21,941 nucleotides of DNA from a virus. The notes under the pieces are model-generated. The model saw only the letters and a program-made list of their open reading frames with translations. It did not search any database and was not told where the DNA came from. Shown here one piece after another: positions 7,777 through 21,283 of this stretch; position 1 is the first letter of the stretch; each line of letters starts with the position of its first letter. The translations under genes were made by a program, and so were the position numbers. The stretch lies in the UHGV virus genome UHGV-0105323. One strand, 5' to 3'.

Positions 7777-8244
7777 ATGAGCCGTGTTCTGTGTGTGGTG
7801 ATTATTGTCCTGGCGGGTGGCTGTGGTGCGCTGTGGCTGGCAACAGACCATTACCGCGATAACGCCATCACCTACAAAGCGCAGCGCGATAAAAAAGCCA
7901 GAGAGCTGGAGCTGGCAAACGCAACCATTACTGATATGCAGGTGCGCCAGCGTGATGTTGCTGCGCTCGATGCAAAATACTCGAGGGAATTAGCTGATGC
8001 GAGAGCTGAAAATGAAACTCTTCGCGCTGACGTTGCCGCTGGTCGTAAGCGCCTGCGTATCAACGCCACCTGTCCAGGTCCCGTGCGTGAAGCCACCGGC
8101 ACCGCCCGCGTGGATAATGCAACCGGCCCCCGACTGGCAGACACCGCTGAACGGGATTATTTCATCCTCAGAGAACGGTTGATGACAATGCAGAAGCAGG
8201 TGGAAGGGGCGCAGGAATATATCCGCACTCAGTGTATTAACTAG
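7777..8244 (+). CDS. Rz: Rz i-spanin (inner-membrane spanin)
   Basis: 155-aa ORF with N-terminal TM ([12 protein letters not shown]) and a long coiled-coil-like periplasmic domain; follows the endolysin and contains an embedded Rz1 ORF in the +1 frame. Confidence 0.8.
8012..8182 (+). CDS. Rz1: Rz1 o-spanin (outer-membrane lipoprotein), embedded in Rz
   Basis: Alternate-frame ORF wholly inside Rz; product [15 protein letters not shown]... has a lipoprotein signal with lipobox LVVSAC and a proline-rich mature region. Confidence 0.75.
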
Positions 8245-9588: not shown

Positions 9589-10152
9589 GTGCTGACAACG
9601 CAAAAACGAAAATTTGCGCTGGCGCTCATGTCCGGGAAAAACAAAACAGCGTCAGCCATTGCCGCCGGTTATTCGGCGAAGACCGCCAGGGTTAAAGGCT
9701 CGCAGCTGGCAAAAGATCCGGAGGTGCTTGCGTTTATAGCCCGTAAACAATGCGAGACGGTGGAGGTGGATGAGGTTCCTGTTTACCGGCAGAAAAAATC
9801 AGAGCAGGAGGATAAACCCCGTCGCCGTGAGGCGGCTGCAATACCACAGCCGGACGAAAACAATCCGGAGATGCCACCGTCCGCGGTGATGTCTCCTGGT
9901 ATTGAATATATGGAGGATGGTCTTCCCGATCCGGTGAAAGCCATGGGGCGGATCCTGGTGGAAAACCTCTGCATTGATCCGAAACTGGCACTGGATGCGG
10001 CCTGGCGTCTGGCGCAGTTCACGCACCATAAAAAAGGGGATACCGGGAAAAAATCGGCAAAAGGTGATGCCGCGAAAAAAGCGGCTAACCGTTTTGCGGT
10101 GCCACCGCCACCCCGACTGGTGGTGAATAACGATAATGAGGGCAACGGATGA
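9589..10152 (+). CDS. Terminase small subunit
   Basis: GTG start with GGAGGAGG RBS; N-terminus (KRKFALALMSGKNKTASAIAAGYSAKTARVKGSQLAKDPEV) resembles phage terminase small-subunit HTH regions; HNH-cos-TerS synteny. Confidence 0.7.
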   Translation: MLTTQKRKFALALMSGKNKTASAIAAGYSAKTARVKGSQLAKDPEVLAFIARKQCETVEVDEVPVYRQKKSEQEDKPRRREAAAIPQPDENNPEMPPSAVMSPGIEYMEDGLPDPVKAMGRILVENLCIDPKLALDAAWRLAQFTHHKKGDTGKKSAKGDAAKKAANRFAVPPPPRLVVNNDNEGNG

Positions 10153-10406
10153 TACCTGTATGGAGCACAGCCTGCCCGGACTGGGCAGAGCGCCTGAAAA
10201 AGGGGCTGTCGATTATTCCGGATCCGATTTATCCGGACGAGGCCGCACATGCCCTGGCGATTTTTAAACAACTGCGGATTGTGGATGCACCTGGTAGCCC
10301 TACGTTCGGGGAGTCCTGTGCACCGTGGGTGGCGCAACTGGGCCTCATCCGTACTGCAGGAAATATCAAAAGTTCTTATGAATGCCGCGATTGTCAACGG
10401 AATTAA
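10149..10406 (+). pseudogene. Terminase large subunit, N-terminal fragment (truncated at a deletion junction)
   Basis: ORF overlaps the TerS stop (ATGA) and opens MIPVWSTACPDWAERLKKGLSIIPDPIYPDEA..., which resembles TerL N-termini of HK97/P27-like phages, but recognisable sequence runs only about 60 codons before the frame changes into tape-measure sequence. Junction estimated near 10330-10375. Confidence 0.6.
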
Positions 10407-10842
10407 GACGGCGGCAAACGGTATGTCCGGTGCGGGAGGATTTATTGGCAGCATTGGTGACTGGCTGGGCGGTGCGGTGGCCAATGCAAAAGGCGGCGTG
10501 TATACCTCGGCAAACCTGAGCGCGTACAGCAACAGTATTGTGGATACGCCCACGTACTTTGCCTTTGCAAAAGGGGCCGGGCTGATGGGGGAAGCAGGAC
10601 CTGAAGCCATAATGCCCCTGACCCGGGCGGCGGATGGCTCGCTGGGTGTACGCGCGGTGGGCAGTATGAACGGCAGTGCCGGTCTGGTGTATTCCCCGGT
10701 CTACCATATCGCCATTCAGAATGACGGGGCCAACGGTCAGATAGGGCCGGAGGCGGCAGGCAGCCTTGTTCAGCTGATTGACCAGCGGGTGCAGGCGGTG
10801 ATGCTGTCCATGCGACGAGACGGAGGAATGCTGAGTGGCTGA
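10249..10842 (+). pseudogene. H: Tail tape-measure protein (lambda H-like), C-terminal fragment
   Basis: Gly-rich C-terminal segment (AAIVNGIKTAANGMSGAGGFIGSIGDWLGGAVANAKGGVYTSANLSAYS...) of the kind found at lambda-H-like tape-measure C-termini, ending 8 nt past the start of M exactly as H precedes M in lambda. The first roughly 30-40 codons of this frame are out-of-frame TerL DNA. Confidence 0.65.
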
Positions 10843-11176
10843 GATAAAAACGCTGCATCTGGTCCCGCGTGAAGGGATGCAGGTGAGTGAGAAACCGTCG
10901 GTGGTGAGGGTCCGGTTTGGTGACGGTTATGAACAGCGCCGACCGACGGGACTGAATGCCCGACTGAAGACATTTCAGGCGGTGTTCCGGGTGACGGATG
11001 AGGCGACCCGGCGCTGGCTGGATGAATTTTTATCGTGGCATGGTGGTTACCGTGCCTTTTTGTGGAAACCCCCGAAACATAACCGGACGGTCAGGGTGGT
11101 GTGCCGGGAGTGGAGTATTACGGATAACGCCAGGTACAGCGATTTCAGTTGTATGATGGAACAGGTAATAAGATAA
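10835..11176 (+). CDS. M: Minor tail protein M
   Basis: 113-aa ORF (GTG start) with VRVRFGDGYEQRRPTGLNARLKT...FLWKPP motifs matching lambda gpM; H-M-L synteny. Confidence 0.85.
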   Translation: MAEIKTLHLVPREGMQVSEKPSVVRVRFGDGYEQRRPTGLNARLKTFQAVFRVTDEATRRWLDEFLSWHGGYRAFLWKPPKHNRTVRVVCREWSITDNARYSDFSCMMEQVIR

Positions 11177-11382: not shown

Positions 11383-12546
11383 ATGAAAAAAATGACAGTG
11401 GCACTTTCAGCTGTGGCAGCAGCTGTAATTTTTGCAGCGGGGGCGCAGGCTGCAGAAGTATACAATAAAGATGGCAATAAACTTGATGTGTATGGGCGTG
11501 CAACTGCACTCCATTATTTCTCCAGTGATAAGGGGGATGATGGAGATAAGACATACGCACGTCTGGGCTTTAAAGGTGAAACTCAGATTAATGACCAGTT
11601 GACTGGTTTTGGTCAGTGGGAATATCAGTTCTCTGGTAATAAAGCTGAATCAGAGGGTGCTGCGGGTAATAAAACCCGTCTTGCATTTGCAGGTCTGAAG
11701 TTTGGTGAGTTTGGCACCATTGATTATGGTCGTAACTATGGTATTGCGTACGATGTTGGTTCTTATACTGACGTATTACCAGAGTTTGGCGGTGATGGCT
11801 GGACCCAGACCGATAACTTCATGACAGCCCGTACTTCCGGGGTATTAACCTATCGTAATACAGATTTCTTTGGGCTTGTCGATGGCCTGAATTTTGCGGC
11901 ACAGTACCAGGGTAAAAATGATCGGGGTGATCTCCGGAAAGCTAATGGTGATGGTCACGGTTTCTCAGCCAGTTATGAATATGAAGGTTTTGGTATCGTT
12001 GCCGCATATATTAATGCGGACCGAACCAATAATCAGGAAAAAGGTCTGAATGGTACTCTGACGATTGAACAAACTGATCCTTTAACCGGTAAAGTGACTG
12101 AAAAGCAGATCGTTGTTGATTCCGGTAGTGTTGCAAAAGGTAAACACGCTGAGATGTGGGGAGTCGGACTAAAATACGATGCTGACAACCTTTACCTGGC
12201 TACAACATATTCCGAAACTCAGAATCTGACGACCTTTGGTGATAAAGGAGTTGCAGATAAAGCGCAAAACTTTGAAGCGGTACTGCAGTATCAGTTTGAT
12301 TTTGGTCTGCGCCCGTCCCTGGCCTACCTTCAGTCCCGCGGACAGGATGTTATGGTTGGTGGTGTGAACCATGGCGATCAGGATCTGGTTAAATATATTG
12401 ATGTCGGAGCGACTTATTACTTTAACAAGAATATGTCCACCTATGTTGATTATAAAATTAACCTGATTGATGAAAGTGAATTTACCCGGAAAGCCGGTGT
12501 TGCGACAGATAATATCGTTGCTGTGGGTATGACTTATCAGTTCTGA
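11383..12546 (+). CDS. General diffusion porin (OmpC/OmpF/PhoE family; NmpC/Lc-like prophage porin)
   Basis: 387-aa ORF with signal peptide ([38 protein letters not shown]), typical porin strands ([35 protein letters not shown]) and C-terminal ...VGMTYQF. Preceded by about 200 bp of very AT-rich DNA and followed by a strong terminator; inserted between M and L. Confidence 0.85.
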
Positions 12547-12718
12547 TTATTGCTGATAAGTTAATAAATACGGGCCGTCTGCCCTTACAGGCGGCCTGTA
12601 TCAATGAAAACACAGTTTTCATTGGTCACTGCGATCAGCAATTGCCATCTGGTATGTGCTGATTTAACTTTCTGTTATTACCTTTATTGGTTTTATTTTA
12701 AATTGGACTTTTATTGTT

Positions 12719-12744
12719 CGGGGCGCGTCTGCGCCCCTTTTTTA
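12719..12744 (+). terminator. Rho-independent terminator after the porin gene
   Basis: CGGGGCGCG-TCT-GCGCCCC followed by TTTTTT. Confidence 0.65.
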
Positions 12745-12755
12745 TGGGCGGATAT

Positions 12756-13454
12756 ATGCAGGATATTCACGAAGAAAGTCTGAACGAGTCGGTTAAATCA
12801 GAGCAGTCACCGCGGGTGGTGCTCTGGGAAATCGACCTGACGGTGCAGGGCGGTGAGCGGTATTTTTTCTGCAATGAGCTGAATGAAAAAGGGGAGCCGG
12901 TCACCTGGCAGGGGCGGCAATATCAGGCATACCCGATTGACGGTAGCGGTTTTGAGATGAGCGGGAAGGGCAGCAGTGCCAGACCGTTGCTGACGGTGTC
13001 CAATCTGTTCGGTCTGGTCACCGGGATGGCGGAGGATTTGCAGAGCCTGGTGGGGGCCACGGTGGTCCGCCGCCGGGTGTATGCCCGTTTTCTGGATGCG
13101 GTGAATTTCGTTGCGGGCAATCCGGAGGCGGACCCGGAGCAGGAGCTGAGTGACCGCTGGGTGGTGGAGCAGATGTCGGAGCTGACAGCCATGACGGCCT
13201 CGTTTGTGCTGGCCACACCGACCGAGACGGACGGGGCGCTGTTTCCCGGTCGTATCATGCTGGCGAACACCTGTATGTGGACCTACCGCTCTGATGAGTG
13301 TGGTTACACGGGCAGGGCTGTGGCGGATGAGTTCGATAAACCCACCACGGATATCCGTAAGGACAGATGCAGCAAGTGCATGCGCGGGTGTGAACTGCGC
13401 AGGAATGTCGGCAATTTTGGCGGTTTCCTTTCCATTAATAAACTTTCGCAGTAA
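12756..13454 (+). CDS. L: Minor tail protein L
   Basis: Start at the internal ATG (MQDIHEESLNE...) corresponding to the lambda gpL start; strong similarity throughout (VVLWEIDLT..GGERYFFCNE.NEKGEPVTWQGRQYQ.YPI.GSGFE...GNFGGFLSINKLSQ), including the conserved Cys cluster. Confidence 0.85.
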   Translation: MQDIHEESLNESVKSEQSPRVVLWEIDLTVQGGERYFFCNELNEKGEPVTWQGRQYQAYPIDGSGFEMSGKGSSARPLLTVSNLFGLVTGMAEDLQSLVGATVVRRRVYARFLDAVNFVAGNPEADPEQELSDRWVVEQMSELTAMTASFVLATPTETDGALFPGRIMLANTCMWTYRSDECGYTGRAVADEFDKPTTDIRKDRCSKCMRGCELRRNVGNFGGFLSINKLSQ

Positions 13455-13463
13455 TGGATTATG

Positions 13464-13486
13464 CCCACCGTCAGGTGGGTTTTTTA
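13464..13486 (+). terminator. Rho-independent terminator after L
   Basis: CCCACC-GTCA-GGTGGG followed by TTTTTTA. Confidence 0.55.
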
Positions 13487-13510: not shown

Positions 13511-14047
13511 TCAAACAACCCACCAGTTTGCCTGATTGGATGCCAGCCTTGCAGTTTTTATGGAATTAATTATGCCATGCTCAAGAGCCTTGTTAGCATC
13601 CAAAATGGTCGAGTCTGCTATCAGGGATGCCCACCTAATATGGGTTCCGATGTCGATATTGAACGTCTCAACGAAGCGATCAAGATCGTTATCGAGGCAT
13701 TTCCCGTACTCTCTCAATCTGGCATGGTCGGCGGCTGGGGAGGCAAAGCACCATAATAGAGGATGTAACAGGAATCTTGATAATGGGTTTGCGAAACGTT
13801 CTGAGCCAGCCAGGAAAACGATATTAGCTATGGATTCAACATTGCTTATGTTGTGAGTTCTAACGGTAACAGGGAGTGACTTAAGAAAGTTATACGCAGT
13901 AAAGCCAGCGGCAGTTTCCCCTCCCTGACTTGATATATGGATATTTAATTCAGTTGCGCCTTGAGATAATGCGGTGAGACAGTGGTTCTGAAGTTGCCCA
14001 ACAGTGGCAGTGTTAACGGGGCATAAGAAATGAATTGTGTGCAGCAT
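13511..14047 (-). CDS. ClpP-fold serine peptidase-like protein (S14/ClpP-crotonase superfamily), accessory
   Basis: 178-aa reverse-strand ORF whose start overlaps the stop of the upstream Mnt-like gene (TAATG). Hand alignment to ClpP: ISSQGGETAAGF vs INSPGGVITAGM, a Ser at the nucleophile position (NVESIAN vs GQAASMG) and a His at the catalytic His position (RFLLHPL vs RVMIHQP). Confidence 0.5.
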   Translation of the reverse strand: MLHTIHFLCPVNTATVGQLQNHCLTALSQGATELNIHISSQGGETAAGFTAYNFLKSLPVTVRTHNISNVESIANIVFLAGSERFANPLSRFLLHPLLWCFASPAADHARLREYGKCLDNDLDRFVETFNIDIGTHIRWASLIADSTILDANKALEHGIINSIKTARLASNQANWWVV

Positions 14048-14295
14048 TATTTTTCATCCTTAGCATACATGGTCTTTAGCGTCTCAAGTAGCGCCTCTTT
14101 GAATTTATCAGCTTCTTGGTTAGCGAATCCTTCAAGTGAGCGAGAGCCATCAAGATTATCAACATGTTTTTGAAGGATAAGCACGATCTCTGAGTTCATT
14201 GATCTGCCGTTTTTATCCGCTTCTTGCTGAATGCGTTTCTTTAAATAGTCTGGAATCCTAATCCCCAATGGACTGATATCTCTTGCACCTTTCAT
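14047..14295 (-). CDS. mnt: Mnt-like ribbon-helix-helix repressor
   Basis: Start at the internal ATG behind AGGAGGAG, giving 82 aa, the same length as P22 Mnt. MKGARDISPLGIRIPDYLKKRIQQEADKNGRSMNSEIV... has the Arc/Mnt RHH N-terminus (NGRSMNSE). Divergent from the arc-ant pair across an operator-rich intergenic region. Confidence 0.65.
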   Translation of the reverse strand: MKGARDISPLGIRIPDYLKKRIQQEADKNGRSMNSEIVLILQKHVDNLDGSRSLEGFANQEADKFKEALLETLKTMYAKDEK

Positions 14296-14317
14296 TTCTC
14301 CTCCTGCACGCTGTGCG

Positions 14318-14392
14318 TAGCTACACAGTGTAGGCAAAAAATTTTTGACTTTAAATAAACACGGTGTAGTATTTAGTTATCACGGTGTAGCA
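14318..14392. promoter_or_regulatory. Divergent promoter/operator region of the immI-like module
   Basis: Perfect palindrome CTACACAGTGTAG (14321-14333), direct repeats CACGGTGTAG at 14360 and 14381 spaced 21 bp, and a -35-like TTGACT (14345-14350) 16 bp upstream of a -10-like TAGTAT (14367-14372); four GTGTAG half-sites in all. Confidence 0.5.
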
Positions 14393-14404
14393 AGTGAGGT
14401 GGAA

Positions 14405-14545
14405 ATGAAAGTTAGAGACATCGCTCCATTAGGGATTCGTATCCCGCCAGAGATTAAAGAAAAATTGAAGGAAAAGGCTAAGGAGGAGGGCAGGTCTTTA
14501 AATTCAGAAATAGTGCAGCGTCTTATTCGCAGCCTAAAAAGTTGA
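14405..14545 (+). CDS. arc: Arc-like ribbon-helix-helix repressor
   Basis: 46-aa product [46 protein letters not shown] with GAGGTGG RBS; same RHH signature as P22 Arc (NGRS.NSEI); immediately upstream of ant. Confidence 0.6.
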
Positions 14546-14575
14546 AGCCCCAACTGCTGGAACAGTCGGGGCTTC
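14544..14575 (-). terminator. Hairpin in the arc-ant intergenic region; reverse-strand terminator-like (possible sar-type antisense RNA terminator)
   Basis: Perfect 8-bp inverted repeat GAAGCCCC...GGGGCTTC; read on the reverse strand it is followed by AACTTTTTAGG. Confidence 0.35.
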
Positions 14576-14606
14576 GGTATCAACAAATCAGATAGGAATT
14601 ATTGAT

Positions 14607-15536
14607 ATGGCAAGTTTAGCAAAGTCAACATTAAATTGCACTAACAGCATCACCATTTCAGACGTCAAGATTCATATGGATTCAGAGGGGCGTTACTCGC
14701 TTAATGACCTGCACAAGGCATCAGGTAAAGAGCGTCGTCATGAGCCTGCTGCGTGGCTGCGACTCGAACAAACCAATGAGTTAGTTCAAGAAATTCTAAA
14801 TACACAGATGTGTGTATTTAAAAATGGCGATAACTTTAATTCTTCAGAATCGCAGATTAAGAAGCCAATGGACTCTAAGAAGGGTCGCTACGGAGGCACC
14901 TACGTGTGCAAGGAGCTTGTTTACTCCTACGCCATGTGGATTAGCGCAGCCTTTGCGCTGAAGGTTATCCGTGCATATGACGCAATGGTTACTACCACAC
15001 AAGAGAGGAAGGCTATTGGCGGTAAAACTTCAGTAGCTGAACGCACACCTCTACGCGATGCAGTAAACATGCTGGTAGGAAAGAAAGGACTTCGCTATGA
15101 CGATGCATACAATATGGTTCATCAGCGTTTTGGTATTGACAGCATTGATGAACTTTCAATTGAACAAATCCCGCTGGCCGTAGAGTACATCCACAGGGTA
15201 GTGCTTGAAGGTGAGTTCATTGGCAAACAAGAGAAGAAAACCAACGAGCTTTCCGCAAAAGAAGCAAACAGCCTTGTATGGCTATGGGATTATGCCAACC
15301 GCTCACAGGCATTATTCCGCGAACTGTATCCGGCGCTAAAGCAAATTCAATCGAACTATTCTGACAGGTGCTACAACTACGGCCATGAGTTCTCGTATGT
15401 TATTGGAATGGCGAGAGACGTTTTAATCAATCACACACGAGATGTTGATATTAATGAGCCAGATGGACCAACGAATCTTTCCGCATGGGTAAGGCTTAAG
15501 AGCAAAGAGTTGCCGCCTTCACTGCATCACTACTAA
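14607..15536 (+). CDS. ant: Antirepressor with N-terminal KilA-N domain (Ant-like)
   Basis: 309-aa ORF; N-terminal region ([25 protein letters not shown]...[19 protein letters not shown]...[29 protein letters not shown]) fits the KilA-N/Ant fold; size and position after arc match P22 Ant. Confidence 0.65.
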
Positions 15537-15555
15537 CAGATTACCAACGAAATGA

Positions 15556-15578
15556 CCCAGCCTCGGCTGGGTTTTTTA
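15556..15578 (+). terminator. Rho-independent terminator after ant
   Basis: CCCAGCC-TCG-GCTGGG followed by TTTTTT. Confidence 0.6.
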
Positions 15579-15590
15579 TCAGGAGTTCTC

Positions 15591-16328
15591 ATGCTCTATA
15601 GCAATATATTGGCACATGCCCGGCGGTGTGCGCCTGCGGAGTCGTGCGGCTTCGTGGTGAGAACGCCGGAGGGGGAGCGGTATATCCCTTGTGTGAATAT
15701 TTCCGCAGAGCCGGAGGCGTATTTTCGTATCGCACCGGAAGACTGGCTGCGGGCAGAGATGCAGGGGGAGATTGTGGCGCTGGTTCACAGTCATCCCGGT
15801 GGTCTGCCCTGGCTGAGCGAGGCTGACCGGCGGCTGCAGATAAAAAGCGCACTGCCCTGGTGGCTGGTCAGCCGGGGTGACATTCACAAATTCCGCTGTG
15901 TGCCACACCTGACGGGACGGCGCTTTGAGCACGGGGTGACGGACTGTTACACGCTGTTCCGGGATGCTTATCATCTGGCGGGGACTGAAATGCCGGATTT
16001 TCATCGCGAGGATGACTGGTGGCGCAACGGTCAGAACCTTTACCTGGACAATATGGAGGGAACGGGCTTTTACCGGGTGCCCCTGTCCTCTGCACAGGCG
16101 GGCGATATTCTGCTGTGCTGCTTTGGTGCTTCGGTACCGAACCATGCCGCCATTTACTGCGGCAACGGTGAGCTGCTTCACCATCTGCCTGAACAACTGA
16201 GTAAACGGGAGAGGTATTCCGAAAAATGGCAACGACGAACGCATTCTGTCTGGCGTCACCGCCACTGGCACGCATCTGCCTTCACGGGGATTTACAACGA
16301 TTTGGCCGCCGCCTCAGCCTGTATGTGA
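15591..16328 (+). CDS. K: Tail assembly protein K (JAB/MPN plus NlpC/P60-like)
   Basis: Start at the internal ATG (MLYSNILAHARRCAPAESCGFVV) with AGGAG RBS; MPN motif (ALVHSHPGG) and a downstream Cys/His peptidase-like region as in lambda gpK. The 3' end overlaps gene I by about 100 nt in another frame, so the exact stop is uncertain. Confidence 0.8.
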   Translation: MLYSNILAHARRCAPAESCGFVVRTPEGERYIPCVNISAEPEAYFRIAPEDWLRAEMQGEIVALVHSHPGGLPWLSEADRRLQIKSALPWWLVSRGDIHKFRCVPHLTGRRFEHGVTDCYTLFRDAYHLAGTEMPDFHREDDWWRNGQNLYLDNMEGTGFYRVPLSSAQAGDILLCCFGASVPNHAAIYCGNGELLHHLPEQLSKRERYSEKWQRRTHSVWRHRHWHASAFTGIYNDLAAASACM

Positions 16329-16906
16329 ACACGGCAGCGGAAGCCATCCGCGCCCTGTCGATGCAGATGCCGGGCTTTCGCCGTCAGATGAACGAAGGCT
16401 GGTACCAGATACGTATTGCCGGTGATGACACGGCACCGGAGGCGGTGTACGCCCGTCTTCACGAACAGCTGGGTGAGGGAACGGTCATCCACATTGTGCC
16501 GCGACTGGCCGGGGCCGGAAAGGGTGGACTGCAGATTGTGCTGGGGGCGGCAGCCATCGTGGGCTCTTTCTTCACTGCCGGGGCATCAATGGCGTTATGG
16601 GGTTCAGCCCTGAGTGCCGGTGGTTTTTCTGCCACCACGATGCTGTTTTCACTGGGGGCCAGCATGATACTGGGCGGTGTGGCACAGATGCTGGCCCCGA
16701 AGGCAAAAACACCGGATTACCGCGTAACGGATAACGGCAGACAGAACACGTACTTTTCCTCGCTGGATAACATGATTGCCCAGGGGAACCCGATGCCGGT
16801 GCCTTACGGGGAAATGCTGGTTGGCTCCCGGCGAATCTCCCAGGACATCAGTACCCGTGATGAAGGCGGGGGCGGAAAGGTCGTGGTTATCGGGCGGCAG
16901 GGGTAA
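16226..16906 (+). CDS. I: Tail assembly protein I
   Basis: 226-aa ORF (MATTNAFCLASPPLARICLHGDLQRFGRR...) with ubiquitin-like N-terminal region and Gly/Ala-rich hydrophobic C-terminal half, matching lambda gpI. Confidence 0.85.
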   Translation: MATTNAFCLASPPLARICLHGDLQRFGRRLSLYVNTAAEAIRALSMQMPGFRRQMNEGWYQIRIAGDDTAPEAVYARLHEQLGEGTVIHIVPRLAGAGKGGLQIVLGAAAIVGSFFTAGASMALWGSALSAGGFSATTMLFSLGASMILGGVAQMLAPKAKTPDYRVTDNGRQNTYFSSLDNMIAQGNPMPVPYGEMLVGSRRISQDISTRDEGGGGKVVVIGRQG

Positions 16907-17146: not shown

Positions 17147-17674
17147 TTATGGGATGATACCACAGCCCATTCTTGCACCGCCGCCGCCGAGTGGATCTGG
17201 ATGGTCATGATAGTTGTCACCGCCAATGTGGATCATAAGAGACCGTCCGCTTATTTCTGTTAATTCTTTCAGTTTTGGTGCGAGAACCGGATAGTTTGCT
17301 TTTCCGTCATGAGTCACGTACAGAGCCGGGAGATCGCCCAGGTGACCATCAGGAGACCAGGGACCAAGATGTTTTCCAGTCTGTTTCGGGTCAAAGTGAC
17401 CGCCAGCTGCTAATGCCGCAACAGATACTCCATCTTTCAGAGCCGGCGCGCAACTTCCCTTTTCGTGCACATGAAATCCATGAATGCCCTGAGGTAAAGA
17501 GTGCAGATCTGGTGTGAACAGGAGACCATAGCTGGTCTCCTGGATAGTTATTGTTCCGGCGCTCACCTCTTTACCATCGGCATTAACAAGGTTCATGGGG
17601 ACTTTTATTGTGGCGGCATATCCACATGATGTTGCCAGCACCATTGCAATAGCAGCAAGACTTTTACGGTTCAT
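17147..17674 (-). CDS. sodC: Periplasmic Cu,Zn superoxide dismutase
   Basis: 175-aa ORF with signal peptide ([20 protein letters not shown]) and Cu/Zn-SOD metal-ligand motifs ([28 protein letters not shown]); reverse-strand insert between tail genes I and J. Confidence 0.9.
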
Positions 17675-17809: not shown

Positions 17810-20800
17810 ATGGGTAAAGGTGGCGGCAAGGCGCACACACCTCGTGAGGCGAAGGATAATCTCAAATCCACGCAGATGATGAGCGTGATTGATGCGATTG
17901 GTGAGGGACCGATAGAAGGTCCGGTGAAGGGACTGCAGAGTATCCTGGTGAACAAAACCCCGCTGACGGACACGGACGGTAATCCCGTGATACACGGTGT
18001 GACCGCCGTCTGGCGTGCCGGGGAGCAGGAGCAGACACCACCGGAAGGCTTTGAGTCCTCCGGAGCTGAAACCGCACTGGGCGTGGAAGTGACGAAGGCA
18101 AAGCCGGTGACGCGCACCATTACGTCCGCGAACATTGACCGCCTGCGGGTGACCTTCGGGGTGCAGTCACTGGTGGAGACCACCTCAAAGGGTGACCGTA
18201 ATCCGACGTCTGTCCGCCTGCTGATTCAGCTTGAGCGTGGTGGTAAATGGATGACGGAAAAGGATGTCACCATTAACGGCAAGACCACCTCGCAGTTCCT
18301 GGCGTCGGTGATTCTGGATAATCTGCCGCCCCGGCCCTTTAACATCCGGATGGTCAGGGAGACGGCGGACAGCACCACGGACCAGCTGCAGAATAAGACG
18401 CTCTGGTCGTCATACACCGAAATCATCGATGTGAAACAGTGCTACCCGAACACGGCCATTGTGGGGCTGCAGGTGGATGCGGAGCAGTTCGGCGGCCAGC
18501 AGATGACGGTGAACTACCATATCCGCGGTCGCATCATCCAGGTGCCGTCAAACTATGACCCGGAAAAACGCACGTACAGTGGTATCTGGGACGGCAGTCT
18601 GAAACCGGCATACAGCAACAACCCGGCCTGGTGCCTGTGGGACATGCTGACTCACCCGCGCTACGGGATGGGAAAACGTCTGGGGGCGGCGGATGTGGAC
18701 AAGTGGGCGCTGTATGCCATCGGGCAGTACTGCGACCAGACGGTCCCGGATGGTTTCGGGGGCACAGAGCCGCGGATGACCTTTAATGCGTACCTGGCAC
18801 AACAGCGTAAGGCGTGGGACGTTCTCAGTGATTTCTGCTCGGCGATGCGCTGTATGCCGGTATGGAACGGCCAGACGCTGACGTTCGTTCAGGACCGCCC
18901 GTCGGATGTGGTGTGGCCGTACACCAACAGCGATGTGGTGGTGGATGATAACGGCGTGGGGTTCCGCTACAGCTTCAGTGCCCTGAAGGACCGGCACACG
19001 GCGGTGGAGGTGAATTACACCGACCCGCAGAACGGCTGGCAGACCTCCACGGAACTGGTGGAAGACCCGGAAGCCATACTGCGCTACGGACGCAACCTGC
19101 TGAAGATGGACGCGTTCGGCTGTACCAGCCGCGGTCAGGCCCACCGTGCCGGACTGTGGGTGATAAAGACCGAACTGCTGGAAACGCAGACGGTGGATTT
19201 CACACTCGGGTCACAGGGGCTGCGGCACACACCCGGTGACATCATTGAAATCTGTGATAACGACTATGCCGGAACCCTGACCGGCGGACGTGTCCTGTCC
19301 ATTGATGCTGCCACCCGCACCCTGACGCTGGACCGTGAAGTGACACTTCCGGGGACAGGTGCATCGACGGTGAACCTGATTAACGGCAGCGGTAAGCCGG
19401 TGAGTGTGGACATCACCGCACACCCCGCGCCGGACCGGATACAGGTCAGTACCCTGCCTGATGGTGTGGAGACATACGGGGTGTGGGGACTCTCCCTGCC
19501 GTCACTGCGCCGTCGCCTGTTCCGCTGTGTGGCCATCCGGGAAAACACGGACGGCACCTTTGCCATCACGGCGGTGCAGCACGTACCGGAAAAAGAAGCC
19601 ATTGTGGATAACGGAGCCCGCTTTGAGCCGCAGTCAGGCACCCTGAACAGCGTTATCCCTCCGGCAGTGCAGCACCTGACGGTGGAGGTGAGCGCAGCTG
19701 ACGGCCAGTATCTGGCGCTGGCGAAATGGGACACGCCGAGGGTGGTGAAGGGCGTGCGCTTCAGTCTGCGCCTGACCAGTGGAAGCGGTGAGAACAGCCG
19801 CCTGCTGACCACCGCCATCACTGCCGATACGGAGCACCGTTTCAGTGGCCTGCCTCTCGGGGAATACACCCTGACGGTCAGGGCGATTAACAGCTATGGC
19901 CAGCAGGGCGAACCCGCCACCACCACGTTCCGGATTAACGCACCGGCAGCGCCTGCCGGTGTTGAACTGACGCCGGGGTATTTTCAGATAACGGCAGTCC
20001 CGAAACTGACCATTTATGACCCGACGGTGCAGTTTGAGTTCTGGTTTTCGGAGGCAAAAATTGCAGACGCCGCACAGGTGGAAACCTCTGCCCGTTATCT
20101 GGGGACCGGCAGTCAGTGGAGTGTCTCCGGTCCGCACATTAAGCCCGGAAAGGATTTCTGGTTTTATGTGCGCAGCGTCAACCTGGTGGGTAAATCTGCT
20201 TTTGTGGAAGCCAGTGGACGGGCGAGCAATGATGCTGCGGGCTATCTGGAACTTTTCCGGGAAAAGATAGGAAAACTGCATCTGGCAGAGGCGCTGTGGG
20301 CAGAGATTGACAACAGTCAGCTGAAGGACGAGATGGCGGAAATGCAGACCACCATCACAGAAACCCGCAATGAAATCACACAGACGGTCAGTAAAACGCT
20401 GGAGGACCAGAGCGCCACCATACAGCAGATACAGCGCGTGCAGAAGGACACAAATGATGACCTTGCTGCACTTTACATGCTGAAGGTACAGAAAACAAAA
20501 AATGGCATACCCTATGTTGCCGGTATTGGAGCGGGGATTGAGGATACTGATGGCCAGCCCCTGAGCAACATACTGCTGCTGGCTGACCGTATTGCGATGA
20601 TTAACCCGGAGGACGGCAACACCACGCCGTTATTTGTGGCGCAGGGGAATCAGTTGTTCATGAACGATGTGTTCCTGAAGCGGCTGTTTGCGGTGAGTAT
20701 CACCTCGTCCGGCAATCCCCCGACGTTTTCCCTGACGCCGGAGGGCAGGCTGACCGCAAGAAATGCTGATATCAGCGGTAACGTGAATGCGAATTCCGGG

Positions 20801-21283
20801 ACGCTCAACAACGTCACGATTAACGAGAACTGTCGGGTTCTGGGAAAACTGTCCGCGAACCAGATTGAAGGCGATCTCGTTAAAACAGTGGGCAAAGCTT
20901 TCCCCCGGGACTCCCGTGCACCGGAGCGGTGGCCATCAGGGACCATTACCGTCAGGGTTTATGACGATCAGCCGTTTGACAGGCAGATTGTTATTCCGGC
21001 GGTGGCATTCAGTGGCGCTAAGCATAAGAGAGAGCATACTGATATTTACTCCTCATGCCGTCTGATAGTGCGGAAAAACGGTGCTGAAATTTATAACCGT
21101 ACCGCGCTGGATAATACGCTGATTTACAGTGGCGTTATTGATATGCCTGCCGGTCACGGTCACATGACGCTGGAGTTTTCGGTATCAGCATGGCTGGTGA
21201 ATAACTGGTATCCCACAGCAAGTATCAGCGATTTGCTGGTTGTGGTGATGAAGAAAGCCACCGCAGGCATCAGTATCAGCTGA
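17810..21283 (+). CDS. J: Host specificity protein J (central tail fiber)
   Basis: 1157-aa ORF with AGGAG RBS; N-terminus [39 protein letters not shown] and many internal blocks collinear with lambda gpJ. Confidence 0.9.

Follow-up and report, generated by a model that had tools for sequence, protein, structure and literature searches.

A short ClpP-family peptidase gene overlapping mnt in a lambdoid prophage is a probable lysogen-expressed accessory gene

The virus genome UHGV-0105323 was analysed as a stretch of 21,941 nucleotides (the window), in which a 178-aa peptidase of the ClpP family is encoded directly behind a homologue of Mnt, the maintenance repressor of phage P22. The open reading frame (ORF) of the peptidase starts with ATG and occupies 13511–14047 on the minus strand, and the 82-aa mnt ORF runs on the same strand from its ATG at 14295 to 14047. 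At the junction (AAATAATGCTG), the last A of the mnt stop codon TAA is also the A of the peptidase ATG (TAATG), producing a one-base overlap. The pair lies inside the tail operon between the plus-strand genes L (12714–13454; Phage_tail_L) and K (15552–16328; JAB and NlpC/P60 domains), and both genes are opposite in strand to L and K. This anatomy agrees in its coordinates with the initial annotation of the locus, which had further proposed a ClpP-like fold, an Mnt-like partner, and a role outside head maturation.

The 82-aa protein, composed of a ribbon-helix-helix (RHH) unit and a C-terminal helix, can be aligned from end to end with P22 Mnt (1MNT; E 4.8e-5). It also hits the Pfam Arc domain (E 6e-8), and its orthologues from Pectobacterium and Providencia match PF11423 Repressor_Mnt. 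Upstream lies a divergent control region of 109 bp (14296–14404) containing three copies of ACAC(A/G)GTGTAG (14323–14333, 14359–14369, and 14380–14390). The last two copies reside within a 19-nt direct repeat, 21 bp apart, and the first makes inverted-repeat arms with each of them. A promoter scan identified a Pant-like promoter facing arc (TTGACT-16-TAGTAT, 14345–14372, plus strand), while a weak Pmnt candidate read by eye (TTTAAA-17-TACACT, 14355–14327, minus strand, 8 of 12 matches) scored under the scan threshold. Beyond the control region is an arc-like repressor gene (14405–14545, plus strand), whose 46-aa product matches solved Arc structures and the Pfam Arc domain (E 5e-13). A sar antisense RNA covers the arc–ant junction (14540–14605, minus strand), with the whole Rfam model RF00262 matched at 67.6 bits (gathering threshold 43) and a terminator hairpin at 14575–14544. 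The antirepressor gene ant (14607–15536, plus strand, 309 aa) follows, encoding KilA-N and P22AR C-terminal domains (Pfam E 1.6e-22 and 3.8e-29; PHROG anti-repressor families). Judged by these matches, mnt, its operators, arc, sar, and ant constitute a complete P22-type immI module, in which the RHH gene is a genuine mnt, in line with the original assignment. The module is positioned between lambda-type L and K, not between gene 16 and the tailspike gene 9 as in P22.

The peptidase scores 44.4 bits against Pfam CLP_protease (PF00574; cut-off 20.2), with residues 24–165 placed on profile positions 37–180 of 182, and carries the motif GG-ETA-AG, of the form GG-x3-AG, at residues 42–48. Its closest match in the PDB is 9UXT_A (E 1.6e-35 over residues 3–175; 42% global identity), with other ClpPs matching at E 1e-7 or weaker; 9UXT is ClpP1 (PpClpP1) of Pseudomonas plecoglossicida (PMC12900304, PLoS Pathog 2026). 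An AlphaFold model based on an alignment of 24 homologues reached a predicted local distance difference test (pLDDT) score of 89.7 and, in Foldseek, a template modelling (TM) score of 0.92 to 9UXT and of ~0.8 to the ClpPs of E. coli, T. thermophilus, Listeria, and Mycobacterium, predicting a ClpP α/β fold with head and handle. The catalytic residues Ser73 and His96 of 9UXT correspond in the alignment to Ser72 and His95, neither of which varies among the 24 diverse homologues. The SSxGG stretch of the oxyanion region is equally invariant, and so are three residues of the handle, D107, H108, and E113; R110 is nearly so. The ClpP-like core, GG-x3-AG motif, and catalytic Ser and His first proposed from a hand alignment were therefore recovered by the Pfam profile, the 9UXT alignment, and residue conservation. 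A point that had gone unnoticed is that the canonical catalytic Asp is absent: Ser146 stands at the aligned position, relatives carry Ser, Ala, or Thr there, and the neighbouring Asp145 is not conserved.

In ClpP, the N-terminal loops and helix A control access to the pore and provide the contact for ClpX or ClpA. The peptidase is missing both the axial loops and helix A; the first core strand (residues 2–7 in the model) opens the protein, and its alignments begin at position 37 of the ClpP profile and at residues 43–57 of solved ClpPs. It is a member of the ClpP superfamily that lacks two canonical features, the Asp and the N-terminal gate. The ratio of nonsynonymous to synonymous substitution (dN/dS) between the E. 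coli and Pectobacterium genes is 0.08, with dS near saturation, and the gene is under strong purifying selection.

Public records label the protein as “head maturation protease”, “hypothetical protein”, or “ATP-dependent Clp protease proteolytic subunit”. The last name, given by PGAP, is generic, since the NCBIfam housekeeping ClpP models (TIGR00493, PRK00277, and others) yield 19–40 bits, below their cut-offs of 228–361. The first would make it an ordinary ClpP-type prohead protease, a PHASTER-style label carried by phage phiv205-1 in GenBank and echoed by both the best PHROG match (phrog_94, “head maturation protease”, E 7e-21) and the best NCBIfam matches, the ClpP-related head-protease models NF045542 and NF045540. 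These latter scores, 49.3 and 49.4 bits, are however far below the respective cut-offs of 120 and 475; the nearest structures are cellular ClpPs, and no C-terminal scaffold or capsid-targeting extension is present. A survey of ~35 prophage loci found the gene always antisense to both flanking phage operons, opposite in strand to the late genes, and always outside the head-gene block. Moreover, P22-type heads mature without proteolysis.

The window itself holds no head genes, as had been remarked, but the cause is a deletion within the prophage. What is left of the terminase small subunit is an N-terminal piece (9589–10152; profile positions 1–56 of 141 only), after which come a C-terminal piece of the tape measure protein (10249–10842) and then gene M; this E. 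coli prophage is defective, with the terminase large subunit through most of the tail shaft deleted. The peptidase gene is intact although the head genes have been lost. An intact lambdoid relative in strain TOE17 possesses a full head module including a 645-aa HK97-type prohead protease–capsid fusion, so head maturation there does not require the ClpP-like gene. On context, strand, sub-threshold scores, and the separate HK97-type protease of the intact relative, we rejected the prohead protease assignment, which we regard as exceedingly improbable, in agreement with the initial annotation.

The peptidase gene was found in 128 of 5,426 complete E. coli genomes, full-length in 126, and these copies nearly always overlap an “Arc family” (mnt) gene; the carrying lineages include K1/extraintestinal pathogenic E. 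coli (ExPEC). In 17 of the 128, a single place accounts for 80% or more of the 1,351-bp query, mostly including the end of gene L and representing the L–K arrangement. Other E. coli examples inspected are P22/CUS-3-like prophages, exemplified by strain CE10 and phage phiv205-1, where the peptidase gene has the ejection-protein genes (gene 16) on one side and the tailspike on the other, corresponding to the sieA position of P22. The analogy with sieA, initially drawn from the linkage to mnt, is thus borne out, as true P22-like prophages hold the peptidase between gene 16 and mnt. In P22, this gene 16–tailspike accessory region has been termed the “ant moron” (PMC2629481). Nucleotide identity to the P22-like phages phiv205-1, EC.P3, and E212 starts at query base 165, which is window position 13464, within a G+C-rich hairpin and T-run assigned by a terminator scan as the terminator of L (13463–13480, plus strand). 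The terminator hairpin behind L is the left edge of the cassette common to these phages, and because identity starts exactly there, the peptidase–mnt unit travels as a cassette between phage types.

Beyond E. coli, mnt-linked copies occupy the same gene 16–tailspike slot in Pectobacterium (80% identity) and in Providencia (66% identity, with a 30-nt gap to mnt). Relatives with 52–75% identity have no mnt beside them and occupy no fewer than four further prophage slots: between the lysis genes and terminase in Leclercia (75%), Serratia (72%), Klebsiella (57%), and a second E. coli lineage (52%); between the N antiterminator and erf/ssb genes in Proteus (54%); within a Mu-like tail module, flanked by tape measure and DNA-circulation genes, in Pantoea (57%); and between tail-fibre and lysis genes in Chromobacterium (58%). 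None of these has an RHH neighbour, and a coupled upstream ORF was present at none of 20 species-representative genome loci. In a bootstrapped neighbour-joining tree, the stand-alone Serratia and Leclercia genes nest in the mnt-linked clade with 86% support, implying that linkage to mnt was gained or lost at least once. By its distribution, the gene behaves as a moron, independent of both head genes and Mnt.

These patterns bear directly on the suggestion in the initial annotation of a toxin-like protease with an RHH partner, and on the fuller reading of the two genes as a toxin–antitoxin or abortive-infection pair in which loss of the RHH protein, acting as antitoxin, would free a toxic peptidase. 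Translational coupling with the RHH gene first, together with a weak RHH antitoxin profile match (FitA-like, 29 bits), would suit such a pair. However, the RHH protein is a full-length Mnt homologue accompanied by divergent arc, sar, and ant and by repeated operators, the peptidase is alone in most lineages with stand-alone forms interleaved among mnt-linked ones, the Providencia genes are 30 nt apart, and a search of PADLOC-DB v2 with the peptidase, Mnt, and Arc, at an E-value limit of 1, returned no family of known or candidate anti-phage systems. With pairing not conserved and the RHH protein being a true Mnt, the proposal was rejected as very unlikely.

The enterobacterial prophage-borne genes form a clade apart from the Pseudomonas genes and share a near-invariant C-terminal NWWV motif, which the Pseudomonas proteins do not have. 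More distant members (~40–47% identity) are chromosomal and include PpClpP1 orthologues of Pseudomonas and Azotobacter as well as Massilia-type loci, the context of the latter being taken from a pooled Pfam count (chromosomal families). A library-wide profile search returned 58 representatives (50% clustering) at E <1e-30 and 1,880 at E <1e-10, which make up a broad family of short ClpP-like proteins.

Stand-alone genes carry upstream elements of their own. Five Pantoea/Erwinia loci (L045:4925–4995 and L004/L005/L006/L011:7925–7995; alignment A3) have a common block consisting of CTGxTCAAATGTCAGGATTACAA, a 17-nt variable spacer, TATGTT, and then the GGAATATTC palindrome, with the palindrome-bearing TCGGAATATTCTTAAGGA placed directly before the start codon. 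The TTACAA-17 nt-TATGTT block and palindrome suggest a promoter plus operator moving with the gene. Serratia, Klebsiella, and Rahnella homologues display a short ACCC...GGGT hairpin followed by TCT(C/T)TGG, 10–20 nt before the start codon (L047:4968–4982, L028:5972–5986, and L008 ~7968–7985; alignment A4), which may be a 5′-untranslated-region element. Two further observations concern the neighbourhoods. In a Klebsiella-type prophage (L029:2603–4045), the lysis–terminase moron region with the ClpP-like gene additionally contains a colicin-domain gene (PF01024), adjacent to a duplicated piece of the terminase-small gene, so the cargo of this slot is variable. Proteus prophages with the ClpP-like gene (L033:7421–9051) carry a Peptidase_M78 (ImmA/IrrE-type) and DUF4411 gene pair between the cI-type repressor gene and N, at the position of lambda rexAB.

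On balance, we think it probable that the peptidase, a short, gate-less ClpP paralogue, is the product of a prophage moron, an accessory gene whose placement allows the lysogen to express it. In this locus, mnt and the peptidase gene would constitute a two-gene unit transcribed from the predicted mnt promoter, as the one-base overlap leaves no room for a separate peptidase promoter except inside mnt. Mnt is the immI repressor made in P22 lysogens (PMC2629481); given this and the overlap without a separate promoter, translation of the peptidase would be coupled to that of Mnt and so take place in the repressed prophage, where the repressor is produced.

Such predicted co-transcription with the repressor that silences ant would also fit a safeguard of the lysogeny switch, in which the peptidase, alone or with host Clp ATPases, removes leaked antirepressor or other phage regulators and thereby lowers spontaneous induction. 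ClpXP degrades phage regulators, including lambda O. A precedent for tuning exists in P. aeruginosa, where the alternative subunit ClpP2 adjusts ClpXP degradation of transcription regulators (PMC13056064). Yet the same peptidase (80–100% identity) lies beside unrelated Ant types (KilA-N/P22AR, Bro-N, and P22_AR_N) and also occupies prophage sites with no ant nearby. Control of the phage's own regulators is a serious rival, albeit one that we consider unlikely.

For a lysogen-expressed accessory subunit, the closest guide to mechanism is PpClpP1, a homotetradecamer that lacks an N-terminal domain and has a 42.7 Å pore. Its peptidase activity is weak and depends on Ser and His, both essential; the third member of the triad is not needed. 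PpClpP1 shows no binding to ClpX, and it joins housekeeping ClpP in a heterotetradecamer whose peptidase and ClpX-dependent activities are raised (PMC12900304). By analogy, the prophage peptidase would be expected to build a double ring of the ClpP type, wide open at the pore and with low intrinsic peptidase activity; a tetradecameric barrel is suggested by the 9UXT homotetradecamer and the conserved D107, R110, and E113. It might also form mixed barrels with the single ClpP of the host and change ClpXP or ClpAP output, in which case the prophage would supply a second ClpP subunit to a one-ClpP host and alter cytoplasmic proteolysis in the lysogen. A barrel without a gate, made of the prophage subunit by itself or together with host ClpP, is thus the probable means of changing proteolysis in lysogens. 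The broader proposition, that a mobile ClpP subunit of Enterobacterales temperate phages co-assembles with or acts beside host ClpP to reprogram lysogen proteolysis, is tentative and, in our estimate, somewhat doubtful. If true, it would represent a previously unrecognised kind of lysogenic conversion.

The benefit would most likely be protection of the lysogen from superinfecting phages, or another lysogen-specific shift in regulated proteolysis. Superinfection exclusion or defence is favoured by the recurrent use of sieA-, sieB-, and bor-like slots: the gene holds the sieA slot by mnt, a site next to N in the equivalent of the sieB region, and the bor-type position between the lysis genes and terminase. 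Were the peptidase to act in exclusion or defence from these slots, it could do so by, for example, destroying incoming phage proteins or speeding up ClpXP turnover of phage replication or regulatory proteins.

Several observations weigh against this interpretation. The promoter scan gave no Pmnt over its threshold, and consensus promoter scans upstream of four stand-alone homologues gave none on the correct strand above chance; for stand-alone genes, a promoter-like signature emerged solely from the aligned Pantoea and Erwinia sequences. The absence of any PADLOC family, noted above, offers no support for defence, and the sequence identity to PpClpP1, on which the mechanistic analogy draws, reaches only 42%. 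Loss of the Asp, combined with the weak activity of PpClpP1, is compatible with a mainly structural or regulatory rather than degradative role. Finally, the chromosomal location of PpClpP1 orthologues near stress-protein genes shows the ancestral role of the family to be cellular and not antiviral.

This last point leads to a second serious rival, host-fitness conversion unrelated to phages, whereby an extra ClpP subunit would aid proteostasis or stress survival of the lysogen, as pseudomonad relatives may do. It is consistent with the core chromosomal Pseudomonas orthologues by KGG stress-protein genes, with the impaired growth and motility upon PpClpP1 deletion (PMC12900304), and with the other morons of the window, an OmpC-type porin gene and sodC, being host-fitness genes. 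Nothing speaks directly against it, but the occupied slots also house exclusion genes in model phages, and E. coli ClpP is already fully active; we judge it rather unlikely. In the Pseudomonas loci L037–L042, the PpClpP1-family gene has KGG-repeat stress-protein genes and a DUF6555 gene as neighbours, which hints at a stress or stationary-phase regulon, a point on which the 2026 paper is silent. That PpClpP1 might itself be a prophage gene was considered and rejected, its orthologues residing in conserved chromosomal neighbourhoods.

The remaining genes of the window, annotated directly with Pfam (the best complete E. coli genome match covers 62% of the window), are those of a lambdoid prophage. 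The flanking plus-strand tail genes are lambda-type and comprise, besides L and K, M (10835–11176), I (16226–16906), and J (17810–21283). The upstream and lysis content includes DNA methylase, TerB, NanS-type esterase, lysozyme, Rz, and HNH genes. Accessory genes typical of Shiga toxin (Stx)-type lambdoid prophages occupy 467–5046: an N6/N4 DNA methylase (467–1516), a TerB-domain protein (1915–2418), and a 653-aa NanS-p type esterase with DUF1737-SASA-DUF6645 architecture (3085–5046). A full-length OmpC/Lc-type porin gene (11383–12546, plus strand; Porin_1 E 1e-140), labelled ompC in related prophages, lies between M and L as a second moron of the tail operon. The Cu/Zn superoxide dismutase gene sodC (17147–17674, minus strand), antisense between I and J, is a third tail-region moron.

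ClpP is among the best-studied bacterial proteases and a drug target, and it is only recently that alternative ClpP subunits have come to be seen as modulators of ClpXP. Here, a conserved short ClpP under purifying selection is spread by prophages across E. coli, Klebsiella, Serratia, Proteus, Pectobacterium, and Pantoea, always in accessory slots; if the proposed mechanism holds, phages can alter the central proteolytic machine of their host during lysogeny. The analysis sets right two labels in routine use, “head maturation protease” and “ATP-dependent Clp protease proteolytic subunit”, and supplies a phage context for the family of the recently solved PpClpP1. The gene is widespread, conserved, mis-annotated, and directly testable, providing a simple test system in which a small, single-acting gene has obvious point mutants at Ser72 and His95. 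Literature searches on phage or prophage ClpP, on Clp in immI or sieA papers, and on the RefSeq accession returned no ClpP gene in a prophage outside the head module. The initial claim that such a function is not described for this fold stands insofar as no paper on the prophage form was found, but needs qualification, as the 42%-identical PpClpP1 was characterised in 2026 as a chromosomal ClpP paralogue, with phages unmentioned (PMC12900304).

Among known systems, the ClpP-related head maturation proteases (NF045542, PHROG 94) share a distant ClpP-core similarity with the peptidase (49 bits; PHROG E 7e-21). The peptidase departs from them in its sub-cut-off scores, strand, location outside the head block, and lack of a scaffold or capsid partner, and it is present in phages whose heads need no protease. 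The P22 immI region, or “ant moron” (PMC2629481; PMC10883804), has the same module of mnt, operators, arc, sar, and ant. As with sieA in P22, an additional gene adjoins mnt and shares its orientation, and P22-like relatives carry the peptidase at the identical gene 16–tailspike position. Unlike in P22, the cargo is a cytoplasmic ClpP-fold peptidase instead of SieA, and the module in the window is placed between lambda-type L and K.

Housekeeping ClpP (MEROPS S14; E. coli ClpP, 1TYF) resembles the peptidase in fold (TM ~0.8), in Ser–His geometry by alignment, in the oxyanion GG, and in the handle residues, but identity is ~20%, the equivalent of the first ~25–35 mature residues is missing, and there is no counterpart of Asp171. 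The accessory subunits P. aeruginosa ClpP2 and Listeria and Mycobacterium ClpP1P2 offer a parallel for the proposed tuning of a mixed barrel by a subunit that does not bind an unfoldase; those genes are chromosomal in species with two clpP genes, whereas here a prophage would supply the subunit to a one-ClpP host. P. aeruginosa ClpP2 was absent among the best 60 PDB matches of the peptidase.

PpClpP1 is the nearest known relative. Both proteins are short (178 vs 183 aa), miss the N-terminal loop and helix, and keep Ser and His with a non-acidic third residue. They differ in that Ser146 of the peptidase is replaced by Pro in PpClpP1 and that NWWV is confined to the prophage branch; the one is a prophage gene, whereas PpClpP1 orthologues are core chromosomal pseudomonad genes beside KGG and DUF6555 genes. 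By alignment and tree, the peptidase belongs with PpClpP1-like short ClpPs as a separate, prophage-borne branch.

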